A stretch of 64,000 bases of DNA from Octopus vulgaris (Eukaryota): NCBI GenBank assembly GCA_951406725.2, contig OX597820.1:11408001-11472000 (forward strand). The letters are read 5' to 3'. Under the pieces are notes generated by a model. It was not told the DNA's origin. It ran no database searches and was given only the letters and a program-made list of their open reading frames with translations. The position numbers were made by a program, and so were the translations under genes. This document shows, in pieces, positions 7,946-62,842 of the stretch (position 1 is the stretch's first letter; each line of letters starts with the position of its first letter).

Positions 7946-8023
7946 GCGGTACATATGTTTCGGGCCTTTATTAGACGGATTTATAACAATGCATAATGTG
8001 TGTCTATGGCCTTCTTCAGCCGC
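7946..8023 (-). ncRNA. Type I hammerhead ribozyme
   Basis: GCGG-CUGAAGA-A-GGCC...GGCC-C-GAAAC-AUAU-GUA|CCGC. Confidence 0.8.
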
Positions 8024-10204: not shown

Positions 10205-10785
10205 TAGTGTACCATACGAACAAGGCTTGAAATATTGGAAGAAGGGACTAGCCAATTGCATCGATCCTAGTACTTGACTTGGGCTTATAGATCCCAAAAG
10301 GATAGAATGCAAAGTCGATCTCGGCGGAATTAGAACTCAGAACGGAAATAGAGACGATATATCTATTTCTATTTCTTTGCTACCCACAAGGGGCTAAACA
10401 CAGAGAGGACAAACAAGGACAGACAAACGGATTAAGTCGATTATATCGACTCCAGTGTGTAACTGGTGCTTATTTTATCGATCCCGAAAGGATGAAAGGC
10501 AAAGTCGACCTCGGCGGAATTTGAACTCAGAACGTAGCGGCAGACAAAACACCTATTTCTTTACTACCCACAAGGAGCTAAACACAGAGAGGACAAATAA
10601 GGACAGACAAACGGATTAAGCCGATTATATCAACCAGAGAGCGTAATTCGTGCTTATTTAATCGACCCCGAAAGGATGAAAGGCAAAGTCGACCTCGGCG
10701 GAATTTGAACTCAGAACGGAAATAGAGACGAAATATCGTCAACCATTTTGTCCTGCGTGCAAACGATTCTACAAGATCGCTGCCA
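10205..10785 (-). mobile_element. SINE family A, multimeric
   Basis: Three GTCGAYCTCGGCGGAATT..AACTC cores about 185 bp apart. Confidence 0.88.
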
Positions 10786-14870: not shown

Positions 14871-14946
<76 letters not shown>

Positions 14947-14990
14947 TATGAAAGAAAGGAGTTGAACGACAAATTAACAAAATTCCTTTA

Positions 14991-15073
14991 TTTTCGACAT
15001 ATGTTTCGAAGGCTGCATATTCCTAATTGCAAAGGAATAAGGAGTATATTATGCCGCTTTCTCATCAGGAAAA
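14991..15073 (-). ncRNA. Type I hammerhead ribozyme (canonical core)
   Basis: UUUUC-CUGAUGA-G...C-GAAAC-AUAU-GUC|GAAAA. Confidence 0.85.
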
Positions 15074-15202
15074 GCAAGGAACTTATGTCAACATCAAGAT
15101 GCACAAAAAACTTTTAGATGACTGTTCACACGGAGCCCATAGCTATGGGCTCCGTCATCTAAAAGTTTTTTGTGCATCTTGATGTTGACATAAGTTCCTT
15201 GC

Positions 15203-15285
15203 TTTTCCTGATGAAAAAGCGGCATAATCTACTCCTTATTCCTTCGCAATTAGGAATATGCAGCCTTCGAAACATATATCGAAAA
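15203..15285 (+). ncRNA. Type I hammerhead ribozyme, mutated mirror copy
   Basis: CTGATGA 15208-15214, GAAAC 15269-15273; G>A changes at the stem II base and in stem III. Confidence 0.7.
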
Positions 15286-15465
15286 TAAAGGAATTTTGTT
15301 AATTCGTCGTTCAACTCCATTCTTTCATATATTTATATTTTTAAAAAAACATACAAATTTCCACACGAAAGCACGTAGCTTTAAACGTGTCTTCTCTGAT
15401 GTGAATTTGCTACCCAGGTATCAGTTAACCGAATTATACTTAACAAGATAATTCATTCTACTACT

Positions 15466-15525: not shown

Positions 15526-16088
15526 TTACAAATTGAGATAGGGGTTGTGAGTGCAACCCACCATGGGATAACATATATCCAATATACTGCCAGTAAAGCA
15601 CCCGATAAAGCTAATACATAAATGTTAAGAATTGCGATGCAATTAATTCATTTATTGTATTATATGGGCGAAGGTAAAATGTTTTACCACAAATTCATAA
15701 TACAGAATAAGAAAATGGAGGAATACACTTTAATCAATAATCAACTACCAGATAATACCCAATCACATAATTTATTAACCAACTACATATGAACATCAAG
15801 ATATTAACTTAACACACCTGGCTAATATGAGAATAATGAGATACTCATATCTACATGGCTGAAACAGTTGTAAGATATAGTTTATATTTATATTTATATT
15901 TATATTTATTTATTTATATGTATTGTAATTATTGTATCATATTACTCATTGATGTGCACTGTTTTGTTTTGTATTATTGTGTTTGATCTTGATGTTCATA
16001 TGTAGTTGGTTAATAAATTATGCGAATGGGTATTATCTGGTAGTTGATTATTGATTAAAGTGTATTCCTCCATTTTCTTATTTTGTAT
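15526..16088. mobile_element. Inverted PLE-type element with truncated HHR
   Basis: Arms about 15700-15802 and 15986-16088; HHR 3' half (stem II, GAAAC-AGTT-GTA at 15861-15872) without CUGANGA; (TA)n flanks. Confidence 0.7.
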
Positions 16089-20970: not shown

Positions 20971-21056
20971 TTCCGACATATGTTTCGAAGACAACATTTG
21001 TATTATTCCCAAAAGAATAAAATGGTGTAAAACAATGCAATCTTTTCATCAGGGAA
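20971..21056 (-). ncRNA. Type I hammerhead ribozyme
   Basis: UUCC-CUGAUGA-A-AAGA...UCUU-C-GAAAC-AUAU-GUC|GGAA; flank resembles the 14941 family. Confidence 0.8.
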
Positions 21057-27161: not shown

Positions 27162-27231
<70 letters not shown>

Positions 27232-27390
27232 AATAAATAAATATAAGAGAGTGGTCACTATATTGATCACTCTAGCACCAGTTAATCCAAAAGGTTTCAA
27301 CCACGAAAATACATGTTTCCCATGAAAGCCAATACGACTGTTAGCTCACACGGACAGGGCAAATAAAAAATAACAAAAATACAGATTATT

Positions 27391-27466
27391 TTGGGACAAT
27401 TGTTTCGCTATTAATGAATTAAATGTAATATTACTTACAATAATCCATTTGTAGCTCGTCAGCCAA
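27391..27466 (-). ncRNA. Type I hammerhead ribozyme (array copy 1; same motif at 27924-27999, 28457-28532, 28990-29065)
   Basis: UUGG-CUGACGA-GCUA...UAGC-GAAAC-AAUU-GUC|CCAA. Confidence 0.92.
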
Positions 27467-29223
27467 GACTATCTGGATGAAATCCACTCAATCACACGCC
27501 AGATTTTACCATAACGATAAATACGCGTGTGGTTCAATTGATTACATCCGACGTTATAATTCAAATGCCCCAACCAACAGCGCGCCAAACTCTCACGGAA
27601 AACAAATACAGCATTTAGAAATAAATGCAGCATAATTATAATTAATTAATAAGGGTGAGAGAATTAGATACTAATTTAATAGTATATTTATTCCACACCA
27701 AGTGGCCTAGTGCTACGAGAAACCTGGATTATTATAATATTTTATAACATATTATAATATTTTCACAAAATAAATATAAGAGAGTGGTCACTATATTGAT
27801 CACTCTAGCACCAGTTAATCCAAAAGGTTTCAACCACGAAAATACATGTTTCCCATGAAAGCCAATACGACTGTTAGCTCACACGGACAGGGCAAATAAA
27901 AAATAACAAAAATACAGATTATTTTGGGACAATTGTTTCGCTATTAATGAATTAAATGTAATATTACTTACAATAATCCATTTGTAGCTCGTCAGCCAAG
28001 ACTATCTGGATGAAATCCACTCAATCACACGCCAGATTTTACCATAACGATAAATACGCGTGTGGTTCAATTGATTACATCCGACGTTATAATTCAAATG
28101 CCCCAACCAACAGCGCGCCAAACTCTCACGGAAAACAAATACAGCATTTAGAAATAAATGCAGCATAATTATAATTAATTAATAAGGGTGAGAGAATTAG
28201 ATACTAATTTAATAGTATATTTATTCCACACCAAGTGGCCTAGTGCTACGAGAAACCTGGATTATTATAATATTTTATAACATATTATAATATTTTCACA
28301 AAATAAATATAAGAGAGTGGTCACTATATTGATCACTCTAGCACCAGTTAATCCAAAAGGTTTCAACCACGAAAATACATGTTTCCCATGAAAGCCAATA
28401 CGACTGTTAGCTCACACGGACAGGGCAAATAAAAAATAACAAAAATACAGATTATTTTGGGACAATTGTTTCGCTATTAATGAATTAAATGTAATATTAC
28501 TTACAATAATCCATTTGTAGCTCGTCAGCCAAGACTATCTGGATGAAATCCACTCAATCACACGCCAGATTTTACCATAACGATAAATACGCGTGTGGTT
28601 CAATTGATTACATCCGACGTTATAATTCAAATGCCCCAACCAACAGCGCGCCAAACTCTCACGGAAAACAAATACAGCATTTAGAAATAAATGCAGCATA
28701 ATTATAATTAATTAATAAGGGTGAGAGAATTAGATACTAATTTAATAGTATATTTATTCCACACCAAGTGGCCTAGTGCTACGAGAAACCTGGATTATTA
28801 TAATATTTTATAACATATTATAATATTTTCACAAAATAAATATAAGAGAGTGGTCACTATATTGATCACTCTAGCACCAGTTAATCCAAAAGGTTTCAAC
28901 CACGAAAATACATGTTTCCCATGAAAGCCAATACGACTGTTAGCTCACACGGACAGGGCAAATAAAAAATAACAAAAATACAGATTATTTTGGGACAATT
29001 GTTTCGCTATTAATGAATTAAATGTAATATTACTTACAATAATCCATTTGTAGCTCGTCAGCCAAGACTATATAAATGCTGTATTTGTTTTCCGTGAGAG
29101 TTTGGCGCGCTGTTGGTTGGGGCATTTGAATTATAACGTCGGATGTAATCAATTGAACCACACGCGTATTTATCGTTATGGTAAAATCTGGCGTGTGATT
29201 GAGTGGATTTCATCCAGATAGTC

Positions 29224-29299
29224 TTGGCTGACGAGCTACAAATGGATTATTGTAAGTAATATTACATTTAATTCATTAATAGCGAAACAATTGTCCCAA
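29224..29299 (+). ncRNA. Type I hammerhead ribozyme (same motif at 29757-29832, 30290-30365)
   Basis: CTGACGA 29228-29234; GAAAC 29284-29288; GTC 29293-29295; stem I extended by CAGAT/ATCTG. Confidence 0.92.
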
Positions 29300-30643
29300 A
29301 ATAATCTGTATTTTTGTTATTTTTTATTTGCCCTGTCCGTGTGAGCTAACAGTCGTATTGGCTTTCATGGGAAACATGTATTTTCGTGGTTGAAACCTTT
29401 TGGATTAACTGGTGCTAGAGTGATCAATATAGTGACCACTCTCTTATATTTATTTTGTGAAAATATTATAATATGTTATAAAATATTATAATAATCCAGG
29501 TTTCTCGTAGCACTAGGCCACTTGGTGTGGAATAAATATACTATTAAATTAGTATCTAATTCTCTCACCCTTATTAATTAATTATAATTATGCTGCATTT
29601 ATTTCTAAATGCTGTATTTGTTTTCCGTGAGAGTTTGGCGCGCTGTTGGTTGGGGCATTTGAATTATAACGTCGGATGTAATCAATTGAACCACACGCGT
29701 ATTTATCGTTATGGTAAAATCTGGCGTGTGATTGAGTGGATTTCATCCAGATAGTCTTGGCTGACGAGCTACAAATGGATTATTGTAAGTAATATTACAT
29801 TTAATTCATTAATAGCGAAACAATTGTCCCAAAATAATCTGTATTTTTGTTATTTTTTATTTGCCCTGTCCGTGTGAGCTAACAGTCGTATTGGCTTTCA
29901 TGGGAAACATGTATTTTCGTGGTTGAAACCTTTTGGATTAACTGGTGCTAGAGTGATCAATATAGTGACCACTCTCTTATATTTATTTTGTGAAAATATT
30001 ATAATATGTTATAAAATATTATAATAATCCAGGTTTCTCGTAGCACTAGGCCACTTGGTGTGGAATAAATATACTATTAAATTAGTATCTAATTCTCTCA
30101 CCCTTATTAATTAATTATAATTATGCTGCATTTATTTCTAAATGCTGTATTTGTTTTCCGTGAGAGTTTGGCGCGCTGTTGGTTGGGGCATTTGAATTAT
30201 AACGTCGGATGTAATCAATTGAACCACACGCGTATTTATCGTTATGGTAAAATCTGGCGTGTGATTGAGTGGATTTCATCCAGATAGTCTTGGCTGACGA
30301 GCTACAAATGGATTATTGTAAGTAATATTACATTTAATTCATTAATAGCGAAACAATTGTCCCAAAATAATCTGTATTTTTGTTATTTTTTATTTGCCCT
30401 GTCCGTGTGAGCTAACAGTCGTATTGGCTTTCATGGGAAACATGTATTTTCGTGGTTGAAACCTTTTGGATTAACTGGTGCTAGAGTGATCAATATAGTG
30501 ACCACTCTCTTATATTTATTTTGTGAAAATATTATAATATGTTATAAAATATTATAATAATCCAGGTTTCTCGTAGCACTAGGCCACTTGGTGTGGAATA
30601 AATATACTATTAAATTAGTATCTAATTCTCTCACCCTTATTAA

Positions 30644-30674
<31 letters not shown>

Positions 30675-30870
30675 CATACATACATATATACACACATAAA
30701 TACATGCACACATACATGCATACGCGCACACACGCATACAGACATACATGTATATATATATTTATATATACACATACATACATATATATATATACATACG
30801 TATAGACATACATATATGTATATATATATATATACATATAAATACATATATATATATATATATATATACG

Positions 30871-30946
<76 letters not shown>

Positions 30947-30952
<6 letters not shown>

Positions 30953-31092
30953 TCAATTCGACCGAGCAGTGTTCGGTATGTAAAAAGACCATTTACGGTA
31001 TATTTGAAGTATTAATTTATAAATTAATATTTCAAATATACCGTAAATGGTCTTTTTACATACCGAACACTGCTCGGTCGAATTGATTAATA
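30947..31092. repeat. 146-bp spacerless palindrome (one mismatch) at the 5' end of an HHR element extending to about 31580
   Basis: Centre TTTA|TAAA at 31019/31020. Confidence 0.92.
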
Positions 31093-37289: not shown

Positions 37290-39483
37290 ACTCTAAAAGC
37301 CCAAGGCCCAAAATTTTGGGAGAGGGGCCAATCGATTAGATCGACACTTGTACGCAACTGGTGCGAAATTTATCGACCCCGAGAGGAAAGGTAAAGTTGA
37401 CCTCGGCGGAATTTGAACTCAGACCATAAAGACAGATAAAATACCTATTTCTTTACTACCCACAAGGGGCTAAGCGCAGAGGGGACAAACAAGGACAGAC
37501 AAAGGGATTAAGTCGATTATATCGACCCCAGTGCGCAACTGGGACTTATTTAATCGACCTCGAAAGGATCTAAGGCAAAGTCGACCTCGGCGGAATTTGA
37601 ACTCAGAACATAAAGACAGACGAAATACCAATTTCTTTACTACCGACAAGGGGCTAAGCACAGAGAGGACAAACAAGGACAGACAAACGGATTACGTCGA
37701 TAATGTCGACCCAGTGCGTAACTGGTACTTATTTAATCGACCCCGAAAGGATGAAAGGTAAAGTCGACCTCGGCGGAATTTGAACTTAAAACGTAGCGGC
37801 AGACGAAATACCTATTTCTTTACTACCCACAAGGGGCTAAACACAGAGAGGACAAACAAGGACAGACAAACGGATTACGTCGATAATGTCGACCTAGTGC
37901 GTAACTGGTACTTATTTAATCGACCCTGAAAGGATGAAAGGCAAAGTCGACATCGGCGGAATTTGAACTCAGAACGTAGCGGCAGACGAAATACGGCTAG
38001 GCATTTCGCCCGGCGTGTTAACGTTTCTGCCAGCTCTCCACCTTGTAAAGTTTCCAATAATACTGGTTTCCAATTTCTGCACAAAGCCAGCAAGTTCTGG
38101 AGGAAGGGGCTAGTCGATGACATCAACTCCAGTCCTCAACTTCTAGTTATTTTATCGATCTCGAAAGGATGAAAGGCAAAGTCAACCCTGGTGGCATTTG
38201 AATTCAGAACGTAAAGACGAACAAAATGCCGCTTTGCATTTTTGTCTGGCAAATATTAACCAGTTAATACTGATTTCAAATTTTGGCAAAATTCTACAAT
38301 TTCAGGTGAAGGGTAAGTCGTTTACATCGAACCCACTGGTCAGCTGGTACTTATTTTATTAACCCAAAAAGGATGAAAGGCAAAACCAACCTCTGTGGAA
38401 TTTGAACTCAGAACATAAAGAGCAGGACGAAATGTTAAACATTTTGCCGGGCGTGCTACGATTCTACCAGCCCACCGCCTTTAGTAACCAATAATATTGC
38501 TTTCCACTATAAGCACAAGGCCTGAAATTTAAAGGAGGGGATTAGTCGATGAGATAGATCCCAGTGTTTCGCTGCTACTTTATTTATCGACCCTGAAAGG
38601 ACCTCGGCGGAATATGAACTCAGAACGTAGCGGCAGACGAAATACCTATTTCTTTACTACCCACAAGGGGCTAAACACAGAGAGGGGACAAACAAGGACA
38701 GACAAACGGATGAAGTCGATTATATCGACCCCAGTGCGTAACTGGTACTTAATTTATCGACCCCGAAAGGATGAAAGGCAAAGTCGACCTCGGCGGAATT
38801 TGAACTCAGAACGTAACGGCAGACGAAATACCTATTTCTTTACTACCCACAAGGGGCTAAACACAGAGAGGGGACAAACAAAGACACACAAAGGGATTAA
38901 GTCGATTACATCGAACCCAGTGCGTAACTGGTACTTAATTTATCGACCCCGAAAGGATGAAAGGCAAAGTCGACCTCGGCGGAATTTGAACTCAGAACGT
39001 AGCGGCAGACGAAATGCCTATTTCTTTACTACCCACAAGGGCTAAACACAGAGAGGGGACAAACAAGGACAGACAAACGGATGAAGTCGATTATATCGAC
39101 CCCAGTGCGTAACTGGTACTTAATTTATCGACCCCGAAAGGATGAAAGGCAAAGTCGACCTCGGCGGAATTTGAACTCAGAACGTAACGGCAGACGAAAT
39201 ACGGCTACGCATTTCGCCCGGCGTGCTAACGTTTCTGCCAGCCCACCGCCTTCATTAACCAATAATATTCCTTTTTACTATAATCATAGGGCCTGAAATT
39301 TAAAGGAGGGGATTAGTCGTTGACATTGACCCCAAGTGTTTCGCTAGTACTTAATTTATCGACCCCGAGAGGATAAAGGACAAAGTAGACCTCGGCGGAA
39401 TTTGAACTCAAAACGTAAAGACAGACGAAATACTGTTAAACTTTTTTAGCCCGGCGTGCTACGACTCTGCCAGCTCACCGCCT
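37290..39483 (-). mobile_element. Cluster of about 5 same-orientation family A SINEs, two of them tetrameric
   Basis: Heads near 38042, 38480, 39250 and 39482; core period 185-186 bp (38601, 38787, 38973, 39158). Confidence 0.9.
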
Positions 39484-47294: not shown

Positions 47295-48050
47295 GACAGA
47301 CGAAATACCTATTTCTTTACTACCCACAAGGGGCTAAACACAGAGGGGACAAACAAGGACAGACAAACGGATTAAGTCGATTACATCGATCCCTGTGCGT
47401 AACTGGTACTTTATTTATCGACCCCGAAAGGATGAAAGACAAAGTCGACCTCGGCGGAATTTGAACTCAGAACGTAATGCTTAGCGGCATTTCGTCTGCC
47501 GCTACGTTCTGAGATCAAATTCCGCCGAGGTCGACTTTGCCTTTCATCCTTTCGGGGTCGATTAGATAAGTACCAGTTACGCACTGGGGTCGATATAATC
47601 GACTTAATCCGTTTATCTGTCCTTGTTTGTCCTCTCTGTGTTTAGCCCCTTCTGGGTAGTAAAGAAATAGGTATTTCGTCTGCCGTTACGTTCTGAGTTC
47701 AAATTACCCCGGGGTTGACTTGACTTTCGTCCTTTCGGGGTCGATAAGTTAAGTACCAATTACGCACTGGGGTCGATGTAATCGACTTAATCCGTTTGTC
47801 TGTCCTTGTTTGTCCTCTCTGTGTTTAGCCCCTTGTGGGTAGTAAAGAAATAAGAAACGTTAGCACGCCGGGCGAAATGCTTAGCAGTATTTCGTCTGTC
47901 TTCACATTCTGAGTTCAAATTCCGCCGAGGTCGACTTTCCTTTCATCCTTTCGGGGTTGATAAATTAAGTACCCGTTGCCTTCTGGGGTCGATCTAATCC
48001 ACTGACCCCTCCCCCAAATTTTCGGGCCTTGTGCCTAGAGTAGAAAAGAA
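47295..48050. mobile_element. SINE family A with inverted 5' unit (minus 47295-47477; plus 47476-48050)
   Basis: Junction CTCAGAACGTA|ATGCTTAGCGG. Confidence 0.88.
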
Positions 48051-50129: not shown

Positions 50130-50540
50130 ATAATTATTTGAGGGGATATTATTCCTAACTTACAGAGAAAAATTCAATTTAGAAATACTAAATCAAATTT
50201 CACAAAATATTATATATATATATAAAAGTTAGAAAAAATCACCTTTTATCAATTCAAAATGAACAATTAAATTACACCATCTAGAAAATTACATATAATA
50301 GAAATATTAAAATTAAAATAACAATAATATAACGATGATTAAGTAAATTGAAAAATAATAATAAAGCATGATTATTCTACTAAATATATACGTTTTATCA
50401 TTATTTTGCAACTTACTTAATCATCGGTATATTATTGTTATTTTAATTTAAATATTTCTATTATATGTAATTTTCTAGATGATGTAATTTAATTGTTCAT
50501 TTTGAATTGATAAAAGGTGTTTTTTTTCTAATTTATTATA
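50130..50540. repeat. AT-rich inverted repeat (arms about 50224-50365 and 50393-50540) in (TA)n
   Basis: CACCTTTTATCAATTCAAAATGAACAATTAAATTACA and its reverse complement; no HHR seen. Confidence 0.85.
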
Positions 50541-50764
50541 TATATATATATTTATTTTTTCTCAGCGTTCACTGTTTTCCCTTCGTTTAGGACTAACGAC
50601 CCTCCATGTTTGTTACCCTTCGGTTTCCCTATATGTGTCCACTGTCCTGTTCTTGTTCCTAACTTTCACTCTCCATAAATCCAAAATCTCATTTTGGCAT
50701 TTATGGAGGGTGATCGAAGATTCATATTGTCGCTGATTGCTCGTAATGGGGAGTAGATAGACAG

Positions 50765-52700: not shown

Positions 52701-52865
52701 GAGTGACAAATAATTATTCCTGATGTAGGCCCGAGGGCAATAGTTACTGGAAAGTTCTATGATAGACGAAACCCACTCAAGAAAGTTGTAATTCTTTTAA
52801 TTCTTTACCTGCTTCATACCAAAGGTAGCGGCCACGTTGGGGCACAGCCATTTACCAAAAACATT

Positions 52866-52987
52866 ACCTACAGTATTTAGATTTTCCTTAGCGTTTCCCA
52901 TCTAAGTACTAACTGGGTTCGACGTTGCTTAATTAACTGCGGTGATGGGATGAGAGCCTACATCTCCAATGTGATATGGCCGTAAAC
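52866..52987 (-). pseudogene. 5S rRNA pseudogene
   Basis: Minus strand GTTTACGGCCATATCAC..ATCACCGCAGTTA..AGCAACGTCG..GTTAGTACTTAGATGGG..TGTAGG, about 120 nt; many substitutions and a 4-nt insertion. Confidence 0.85.
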
Positions 52988-58021: not shown

Positions 58022-59195
58022 GTGTCCGTTTTTATGGCAAATCAAATCCTTCTGATTCAAAAAATTGTGTACAGTAAGCGCTGATGAACATATTTTGTTC
58101 ATCTCCATAATATTCTTTAAGTTTGCTTTCTTTATCATAAATACTATCATACGAAATATTTTCATTTGCCGTTTGGTATCTATAGGATTCTTCGAAAAAT
58201 ACTTGAAAAATAGCCGGATAATAAATACGAGAAATGTTTCTATGCTCGTATACATTTTTTCCTTGTTTTAGAATCGAATAAGAACATTTCTCATGACGAC
58301 ACTTCATCGTTTCCTATGGGAATATTATAACCACGTCAAGATTATCTTTCATATCATCTATATTTTTGTTTCATATCGTCCACAACGATGCTGCGTCTCT
58401 GGTTTAAGTTTCTCTCTTCCTGTGAAAAAAAAAATGATAAGCTCTTCCAACTTGTTCAACAAGGCGTCGGTAGTTTAAAATTTTAAAGGCGGCGAGCTGG
58501 CAGAAACGTTAGCACGCCGGGCAAAATGCTCAGCAGTATTTCGTCTGTATTTACGTTCTGAGTTCAAATTCCGCCGCGGTCGACTTTGCCTTTCATCCTT
58601 TCGGGGTCGATAAATTAAGTACTAGTTACGCACTGGAATCGATGTAATCGACTTAATCCGTTTGTCTGTCCTTGTTTGTCCCTTCTGTGTTTAGCCCCTT
58701 GTGGGTAGTAAAGAAATAGGTATTTCGTCTGTGTTTACGTTCTGAGTTCAAATTCCGCCGAGGTCGACTTTGCCTTTCATCCTTTCGGGGTCGATAAATT
58801 AAGTACCAGTTACGCACTGGAATCGATGTAATCGACTTAATCCGTTTGTCTGTCCTTGTTTGTCCCCTTCTGTGTTTAGCCCCTTGTGGGTAGTAAAGAA
58901 ATAGGTTGTTTAAAATTTTATGATGTAGCTTTCTGAACAGTCGATTTGAGTTCGACTCCCGGCGGACGCAGCCCTACATTTTTAAATGGCCGTTGCGCCC
59001 CGGATATTCCTCTAGAAGAGAAATTCCGAAACAATACCCGAATTGTTGCGTAACTTGAGCTCTTCCTCTTCTTTGCTTCTGGACTAATTGGCTTCGTAAC
59101 GAGAGTCTTTGCAGTATTGTGCAAGCTTTTATTGACTTTAAACTTTAATATCTAGGATAACATTATTTGTCAGTGAAGGCCTTACTCAGTTACGA
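58022..59195 (-). mobile_element. Possible Helitron N-terminal remnant, interrupted by a SINE
   Basis: EMNKICS..YCTQFFESEGFD.ICHKNG resembles the Helitron N-terminal Cys cluster across frameshifts. Confidence 0.4.
58488..58905 (+). mobile_element. SINE family A dimer with TSD
   Basis: TSD GTTTAAAATTTTA at 58473 and 58908; two near-identical units. Confidence 0.92.
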
Positions 59196-62606: not shown

Positions 62607-62842
62607 CTACGGAGAAGTACTTGCATAGCAAGTGACTTGATCTGAGATCGTGTGCTGAAAGGAAAACGATTGCAGCATGGAAGATGTTTGTAACCACTTC
62701 AGAGCACGTTATTTTCACTTCAACATTTAAATTTCTCGACGAAACTATTTTCACACAAATTTTATTTAAATGATGAAGTGAAACTAACGGTTTTTGTATG
62801 TTCTTAAATGGCTTACAAACATCTTCCACGCTGCAATTGTTC
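62607..62842. repeat. Short inverted-arm element in (TA)n with one-sided extension
   Basis: AACGATTGCAGCATGGAAGATGTTTGTAA (62665) and TTACAAACATCTTCCACGCTGCAATTGTT (ending 62841). Confidence 0.75.

Follow-up and report, generated by a model that had tools for sequence, protein, structure and literature searches.

The question raised by a 64,000-nt stretch of the Octopus vulgaris genome (assembly GCA_951406725.2, contig OX597820.1, positions 11,408,001 to 11,472,000, hereafter the window) was how an array of non-coding 533-bp units, each with a hammerhead ribozyme and running in both directions from one point within (TA)n, had come about. The array is practically certain to be a real product of retrotransposition, and two-site priming of the Penelope type is very likely to have produced it. 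Taken as a whole, it is on balance best read as an insertion of a retrozyme-type family, likely made by a reverse transcriptase (RT)-endonuclease of the Hydra clade that primed both ends of one (TA)n cut on a single, probably circular, 533-nt RNA.

The array consists of two head-to-head arms of the 533-bp unit, with 3.45 and 2.96 copies, flanked by (TA)n, and no mismatches at lag 533 were found within the left arm or within the right arm, so that the initial annotation of a head-to-head tandem array of internally identical arms holds. Phases are counted from the first base after GUC (phase 1), the reference unit being window positions 29296-29828. The features are as follows, in window coordinates.

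27164..27224, unstranded: (TA)n target, left side, read from the sequence
27225..27234, minus strand: AT-rich stutter of 10 nt between site A and (TA)n
27235..29071, minus strand: left arm, 1837 bp, 3.45 units; 5′ end at phase 456 (29071), 3′ end at site A, phase 160 (27235)
27382..27475, minus strand: hammerhead, predicted cleavage after 27395
27915..28008, minus strand: hammerhead, predicted cleavage after 27928
28448..28541, minus strand: hammerhead, predicted cleavage after 28461
28981..29071, minus strand: hammerhead with intact core, distal stem I cut by the arm junction, predicted cleavage after 28994
29072..29072, unstranded: single extra base at the 5′-to-5′ arm junction
29073..30652, plus strand: right arm, 1580 bp, 2.96 units; 5′ end at phase 311 (29073), 3′ end at site B, phase 291 (30652)
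29215..29308, plus strand: hammerhead with CAGAU/AUCUG and UUGG/CCAA in stem I, CUGACGA, long stem II and GAAAC-AAUU-GUC, predicted cleavage after 29295
29296..29828, plus strand: full monomer of 533 nt between two cleavage sites, with strong self-pairing on the plus strand only and a rare T at 29358
29748..29841, plus strand: hammerhead, predicted cleavage after 29828
30281..30374, plus strand: hammerhead, predicted cleavage after 30361
30522..30652, plus strand: 131-nt 'tail' between sites A and B, at the right end and absent from the left end
30649..30690, unstranded: (TA)n target, right side, its first bases common to site B

A total of seven CUGACGA cores and seven GAAAC-AAUU-GUC sites were counted in the window. 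Six of the seven hammerheads reported as intact are complete, while the innermost one of the left arm (28981-29071) is complete in its core only, being cut at phase 456 and lacking the CAG of distal stem I. The left end, previously placed at 27233 and 162 nt past the cleavage site, was moved to 27235 and 160 nt, followed by the stutter, which likely reflects repeated abortive priming, and the right end stayed at about 291 nt (30652, phase 291). The unit was found to be non-coding, as had been stated, with 52 and 54 amino acids (aa) in its longest ATG frames, and its GC content was 0.31-0.34. The absence of features of long terminal repeat (LTR) elements, which is part of the definition of a retrozyme, was judged on these open reading frames (ORFs) and the GC content, primer-binding sites and polypurine tracts not having been searched for.

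Searches for the family covered the 2.8-Gb assembly. The array is not a chance pattern, because the unit gave 246 matches at the 40 places scored among 809 candidates. Exact-pattern junctions of phase 291 with (TA)n numbered 877 and exact cleavage-site 35-mers 2039, and the forward-strand (TA)n junctions of site A (phase ~160) and site B (432 vs. 443) indicated a near-equal use of the two sites genome-wide, site A having been counted on the forward strand only since the reverse-strand count was inflated by overlapping matches. From the 877 junctions of phase 291, the 432 of site A and the 2039 35-mers, the family was estimated at about 1000 insertions, and it is young, dispersed and non-coding. 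A total of 80 loci (designated by L numbers) were examined, comprising the 40 best-scoring ones (the window and L031-L069) and, as a second sample, 40 lying within the initial 91 Mb of contig C1 (L121-L160), of which 29 were picked by their B end and 11 by the cleavage motif alone. Arms held from 0.1 to 12.8 units, L032 having 11.6 identical ones, and 47 of the 80 loci were head to head. Neither the layout nor the unit size is thus unusual, as had been supposed, since two head-to-head arms are the standard Penelope-like layout (PMC8557442) and 533 bp falls within the range of 51-972 bp given for metazoan non-LTR retrozymes (10.64898/2026.07.22.740005). Moreover, a Penelope-like ORF (Neptune-like or Hydra) joined to an arm was found in none of the 80 loci, the nearby fragments being separate insertions, and the unit was therefore rejected as the terminal repeat of a coding element. 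The assignment to a non-coding family of the retrozyme type, with copies other than the ends of coding elements, was in this way supported by dispersed hammerhead tandem copies ranging from monomers to multimers. A shorter-stem-II hammerhead pattern found only one degraded copy of the family (L120). Separately, an older sister retrozyme was noted (L175:77-761 and L231-L260), with a unit of ~490 bp that is 66-85% like the present one, 2532 candidates, a tail of ~100 nt and the same two-end pattern, its L175 copy having an altered hammerhead core.

The outer 3′ ends were confined to phases 158-163 (site A) or 285-291 (site B). Among the first 40 loci, 27 were head to head, and all 26 complete ones carried one A and one B end (14 A/B and 12 B/A), the 27th having an assembly gap; the chance of such an outcome with independent ends is 2^-26. 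Among the second 40 loci, 20 were two-armed (16 clean A+B, 3 with one decayed end near A or B, and 1 complex), none of these 20 being A/A or B/B, although in the 29 loci picked by the B end only the other end is informative. Free priming on a circular template, by which the outer ends had first been explained, was rejected, because throughout the family they fall only at A or B, one each. Two fixed sites, one per end, are the signature of the Penelope 'tail', here with ~130 nt. Short AT stutters were present at 12 of 57 A ends vs. 0 of 64 B ends. Furthermore, target-site duplications (TSDs) of 14-16 bp, counting bases of microhomology common to the element, were read in five loci in which the target was not pure TA (L041, L053, L066, L126 and L146), the TSD at the window locus being unreadable in (TA)n. 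Together with the microhomology at the junctions, these TSDs support the earlier suggestion that both ends of one (TA)n break primed cDNA synthesis.

The 47 arm junctions comprised 32 without an insert, with a mean overlap of 2.2 nt (0.78 expected), and 15 with inserts of 1-43 nt. Leaving aside six complex loci, in 4 of the 41 simple two-armed ones (L122, L125, L126 and L132) each arm holds sequence missing from the other, so that neither can be a copy of the other. This bears directly on another route, in which only one end primes on RNA and the second arm is either copied from an antisense template or produced when the nascent cDNA folds back or primes itself, an origin of the kind offered for head-to-head Penelope copies (PMC3846280). 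Such a route fits some loci, as 11 of 41 loci have the 5′ ends of their two arms ≤30 nt apart, where 5.4 would be expected (p = 0.013), and three loci (L054, L131 and L133) have palindromic junctions in which both arms join at one phase. As the source of the second arm it is nonetheless very improbable, given the four loci named above, the split of the longer arm between A (16 loci) and B (25 loci), the lack of mirror symmetry in the order of variants along the arms of L054, and the window arms starting at phases 456 and 311; it also leaves the restriction of the stutter to A ends unexplained. The correlation of arm lengths (rho 0.06 in 26 long loci and 0.38 in the 41 loci of both samples) was not used as evidence. 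Regarding the cleavage site, 5′ ends were not enriched there, with 6 of 137 lying within 10 nt of it (5.1 expected) and 10 matches genome-wide vs. 9 for the control; its over-use as a 5′ end was rejected, and the RT hence does not run off at this site.

In the window, T occupies phase 63 (29358) in all seven homologous positions of both arms, while C was found in the 39 other loci of the first sample and in all run contigs compared, the T being otherwise seen only in L148. This variant is one of the reasons why an artefact, either of assembly or of a fold-back read, has next to no standing as the source of the inversion or of the tandem copies, since mis-mapped family reads would erase it. The window junction is known from the assembly alone, there are indel-rich assembly loci (L048 and L120), and two Hydra loci (L211 and L225) have mirrored flanks; but the window arms differ in start phase, in family-typical end site and in flanks, and a further 46 loci, some of them flanked by TSDs, follow the same grammar with junctions of their own.

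Of the 349 variant-by-locus cases across all loci, 237 extended to every unit, 103 were restricted to a single unit and 9 affected some units. Comparison of 165 full units gave mean differences of 0.93 bases for units of the same arm, 0.47 for units of opposite arms and 6.73 for units of different loci. Moreover, 19 haplotypes were distinguished among 35 multi-unit loci, seven locus-private variants were present in all units of both arms, and the cleavage junction was copied exactly, with 1 indel and 2 substitutions at phases 524-533 over ~268 passes and none at phases 1-4. Since a single haplotype runs through the units of an insertion in both arms, a monomeric or circular template is favoured. 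The homogeneity is best explained if insertions pass through a monomer bottleneck and are then multimerised, as rolling-circle reverse transcription would do, and it is fairly probable that a monomeric circle is the usual template. The proposed 533-nt circle is upheld insofar as a single monomer haplotype fills both arms, as a circle predicts, but a few mosaic arrays do not fit one circle. In addition, a 71-bp foreign insert was observed inside an arm at L060:4113-4183, possibly a template switch to another RNA.

The same data argue against a linear template, that is, two-site priming on an uncleaved multimeric transcript, with long arrays built by later unequal crossing-over and the hammerhead carried along as a passenger from a pseudo-LTR. 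Without a monomer bottleneck, a new variant cannot become fixed in all units of both arms, yet the seven private variants are; each of the 19 haplotypes is nearly homogeneous, opposite arms differ by as little as stated above, the 11.6 units of L032 are identical, and the sense strand shows an apparent selection for pairing (see below). A linear template is therefore considered unlikely, even though uncleaved RNA is the main substrate of anole Poseidon in vitro (PMC11167929), local amplification of Penelope termini has been proposed (10.64898/2026.07.22.740005), L058 and L054 are mosaic arrays, neighbouring units have a common private variant in L035, L045 and L143, and uncleaved RNA accounts for the lack of run-off at the cleavage site no less well than a circle does.

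The folded circle supported stems I and II of the hammerhead, with pairing probabilities of 0.7-0.99, stem II being extended (~50 nt), while the monomeric stem III has 2 bp and a pairing probability <0.01. The ribozyme is a type I hammerhead by its core, but with its long stem II and 2-bp stem III it is not of the usual compact kind. The palindrome of stem III is predicted to form an 8-bp intermolecular duplex (−6.4 kcal/mol), and amphibian retrozymes in a comparable stem III situation cleave as dimers (PMC7229834). A search of Rfam found no hammerhead at the gathering or E ≤ 10 thresholds, the only matches being to microRNAs, below the cut-off and driven by microsatellite. The sense circle folded at −154.7 kcal/mol, compared with −109 ± 6 in 40 shuffled sequences and −118.9 when the antisense strand was folded, and the linear monomer gave z = −8.2. 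Pairs were kept by 20 of 43 inherited variants vs. 13 of 55 singletons (p = 0.02), and the sense strand is apparently under selection for pairing. Finally, the unit was contained in 20 sequencing runs from two organisms, with no RNA source listed for it; in four runs guessed to be RNA, contigs covered the unit completely and joined its end to its start, one of them as a single cycle of 563 bases, a pattern that tandem DNA yields as well.

As regards the enzyme, a search for the GIY-YIG domain found a 781-aa family (L113:789-6050 and L100-L118) that targets (TA)n and has a zinc-finger linker that we take to be Neptune-like. This family is active, its 3 inverted loci all carry one end of each kind and its tail measures ~35-40 nt; it was rejected as the parent for having no sequence in common with the unit and a short tail. 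An additional upstream frame of 479 aa, without clear family assignment, also belongs to it, and a minimal hammerhead whose core is of the U3-A8 type may be present, a candidate picked by eye. A truncated element at L175, a chance neighbour, carries a hammerhead built like that of the unit, and a query with its endonuclease led to large families with intact frames of 840-1090 aa in many copies. P0002 carries RWK, DKT, CxCX5C, CxxC and CxH, the motifs that define the Hydra clade (PMC8557442), and the clade call is based on these motifs because a Pfam search of the Hydra proteins gave no match. Hydra-clade elements are active in this genome. They end either 34-40 or 149-158 nt beyond the cleavage site, with a tail of ~120 nt, and 11 of 12 head-to-head loci have one end of each kind. 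Moreover, the hammerhead region of the unit aligned with three long-stem-II Hydra families (z of 7.6, 3.0 and 3.6), as opposed to the short-stem Hydra (−0.6) and the Neptune-like family (−1.4). The second Hydra lineage, with a short stem II and a tail of ~110 nt, was rejected as the parent since it has no sequence in common with the unit. Hydra is the likely source of the enzyme and of the ancestry of the unit, because its elements show the rule of one end of each kind, the ~120-nt tail and a related hammerhead, and that the enzyme belongs to this clade is considered quite probable.

The enzyme could also come from another (TA)n-targeting Penelope-like clade of this genome, either the Neptune-like 781-aa family, with the activity, target and ends described above, or Naiad. 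Octopus Naiads target (TA)n (PMC8557442; Naiads were not searched for in this genome), and the tails of the unit and of Hydra do not align. Such an origin appears rather unlikely, as the Neptune-like tail contrasts with the 131 nt of the unit and the 110-120 nt of both Hydra lineages, the Neptune-like pseudo-LTR has no likeness to the unit, and Naiads are described without canonical hammerheads (PMC8557442). On the Hydra elements themselves, the proteins of L217:3296-6250 and L211:2900-6172 were 960-1070 aa long, with a long asparagine-rich insert and clear pseudo-LTRs. Hydra-clade elements have been described as under 3 kb, with Hydra-1_Obim listed without a pseudo-LTR (PMC8557442), whereas these copies are longer and Hydra copies in this genome have clear pseudo-LTRs and two ends, Hydra-1_Obim being compared through this listing. 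In L211 and L225, the inverted repeats include host flanks on both sides of the Hydra insertion, through a later rearrangement or an assembly artefact, and L160:4850-6900 is a broken Hydra copy, apparently derived by internal deletion, in which a short 3′ end with a hammerhead follows directly on the front of the ORF.

The following course of events is proposed for the family. Arrays would be transcribed, their hammerheads would cleave, probably as dimers via the palindromic stem III, and a host ligase would circularise the monomers. Both strands of (TA)n would then be nicked ~15 nt apart, leaving 3′ overhangs, a step with a visible footprint and a presumed chemistry. In keeping with the footprint at the ends, pairing would bring one 3′ end to the AU-rich site A (158-163) and the second to site B (285-291), neither site being used for both, and each RT would continue round the template for 0.1 to 13 units. 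The 3′ ends of the cDNAs would be joined by 1-4 nt of microhomology or a short insert, which is the footprint left at the head-to-head junction, and a locus would appear one-armed when one cDNA stopped early. An RT dimer on the structured RNA between A and B may enforce the use of one site each. For the anole protein Poseidon_Ac, nicking and extension have been established for both strands, with synthesis starting at two internal sites of the RNA, one at either border of the tail, and the protein has been modelled as a dimer (PMC11167929). The fullest version, in which a dimeric Hydra RT-endonuclease sits on one ribozyme-made circle, takes the cut ends to sites 130 nt apart and yields a palindromic multimer by two simultaneous rolling-circle reverse transcriptions, is tentative and somewhat more apt to be wrong than right.

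Several observations weigh against the proposed reading, besides the near-equal 5′ ends and palindromic junctions already described. As to the template, 9 of the 349 variant cases occur in some units without extending to all, and in L058 and L054 two states are found side by side in runs, for which linear multimers, template switching, conversion or assembly polishing could be needed rather than one circle. Poseidon insertion in vitro proceeds without a need for hammerhead cleavage, uncleaved RNA being the main substrate (PMC11167929), cleavage in vitro failed for 8 of 9 Xenopus retrozyme dimers (10.64898/2026.07.22.740005), and only 1 compensatory base pair was seen in the unit. Cleavage, circle and transcript of the unit are predictions, from a family known here from genomic DNA alone. 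As to the enzyme, the exceptional Hydra locus, L211, has two short ends, and its flanks are mirrored too; no likeness was detectable between the tail of the unit and those of four Hydra families and the Neptune-like one (z from −0.5 to 0.7); and an autonomous family sharing sequence with the unit was found in none of 140 Penelope-like loci, Naiads not having been searched for. The partner is thus a candidate, assigned by tail length, hammerhead likeness and target only.

Elsewhere in the window, a head-to-head hammerhead pair at 8019 (minus) and 9507 (plus), with (TA)n 34 nt and 133 nt past the cleavage site, belongs to a different family and obeys the rule of one short and one long end. Palindromes of 150-410 bp at 14938-15338 (overlapping a hammerhead motif at 15068, minus), 15700-16088, 30947-31092, 47297-47682, 50204-50558 and 62665-62841 are probably stumps of Penelope-like insertions, and further hammerhead-like motifs, by pattern only, were found at 21052 (minus), 26216 (minus), 31345 (plus) and 32588 (plus). 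Moreover, a 5S rRNA-like match at 52865-52987 (minus), barely above the Rfam cut-off, is probably a pseudogene or the head of a short interspersed nuclear element, and many short tandems of a 183-186 bp repeat were present, e.g. at 10285-10735, 37368-37994, 38600-39202 and 58536-58906.

With metazoan non-LTR retrozymes the family shares non-coding, low-GC tandem units with a type I hammerhead each, dispersal, self-pairing and a unit size within range. Retrozyme RNAs of coral, mussel and axolotl have been demonstrated to self-cleave and to accumulate as circles (PMC7229834), whereas the octopus family is known here from DNA. In contrast to those retrozymes, the present family is two-armed in 47 of 80 loci with two fixed ends; the text of PMC7229834 does not contain the word 'inverted', and the parts covered of 10.64898/2026.07.22.740005 hold no analysis of insertion ends. 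The long stem II and short palindromic stem III also set it apart from the retrozymes described in these two sources. Insertions of Penelope-like elements with an endonuclease (EN+) comprise an inverted 5′-truncated copy and a one-sided tail of 30-40 bp (PMC8557442; PMC3846280). The octopus family resembles them in its head-to-head arms, one-end tail, (TA)n targets and, where readable, TSDs, but it has no ORF, arms that are multimers of the 533-bp unit and a 131-bp tail, and the rule of one end of each kind is quantified here. As with Poseidon_Ac in vitro, its footprint is that of two internal start sites downstream of the hammerhead and of nicking and extension of both strands at an AT-rich target, while the Poseidon_Ac sites lie 30-40 nt apart with no strand difference seen in the start site, as opposed to one site per end here (PMC11167929). 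With Hydra-clade elements it has in common the (TA)n target and a canonical hammerhead core and, in this genome, also the long tail, the use of one site each and a related long-stem-II hammerhead; unlike them, it has no coding capacity, and no alignment was obtained between its tail and the Hydra tails compared.

L1 twin priming, associated with Ostertag and Kazazian (2001), is said to involve priming by both target strands, a head-to-head junction with microhomology and a TSD. In L1 the second primer reportedly lands at variable internal places and the arms abut, while here both sites are fixed and either arm can be several units long. No paper was found that joins retrozymes with twin priming or rolling-circle reverse transcription with hammerheads, most subscription journals lying outside the search, and, judging by title, none had octopus hammerhead repeats or Penelope twin priming as its subject, though supplements may describe the ends. 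The retrozyme class and the head-to-head layout were thus already known, and the link between them was not found in the literature searched.

Two questions meet in this family, namely which enzyme moves animal retrozymes, for which Penelope-like elements have been proposed from co-occurrence and trees only (PMC7229834; 10.64898/2026.07.22.740005), and by what mechanism Penelope-like elements come to have inverted copies and a tail on one side only (PMC8557442). A single genome here provides intact candidate enzymes together with a 533-nt substrate, on which two start sites have been mapped and a strict rule of pairing applies, and with the published in vitro assay (PMC11167929) both the mobilisation of retrozymes and the origin of the Penelope tail become directly testable. 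If a dimer on a circle is indeed responsible, the octopus arrays would attest the life cycle of retrozymes directly at the level of the genome and would name the enzyme, and the inverted repeat and one-sided tail of Penelope would be the normal outcome of obligatory two-site priming, with a telomerase-like stutter at one of the two sites.

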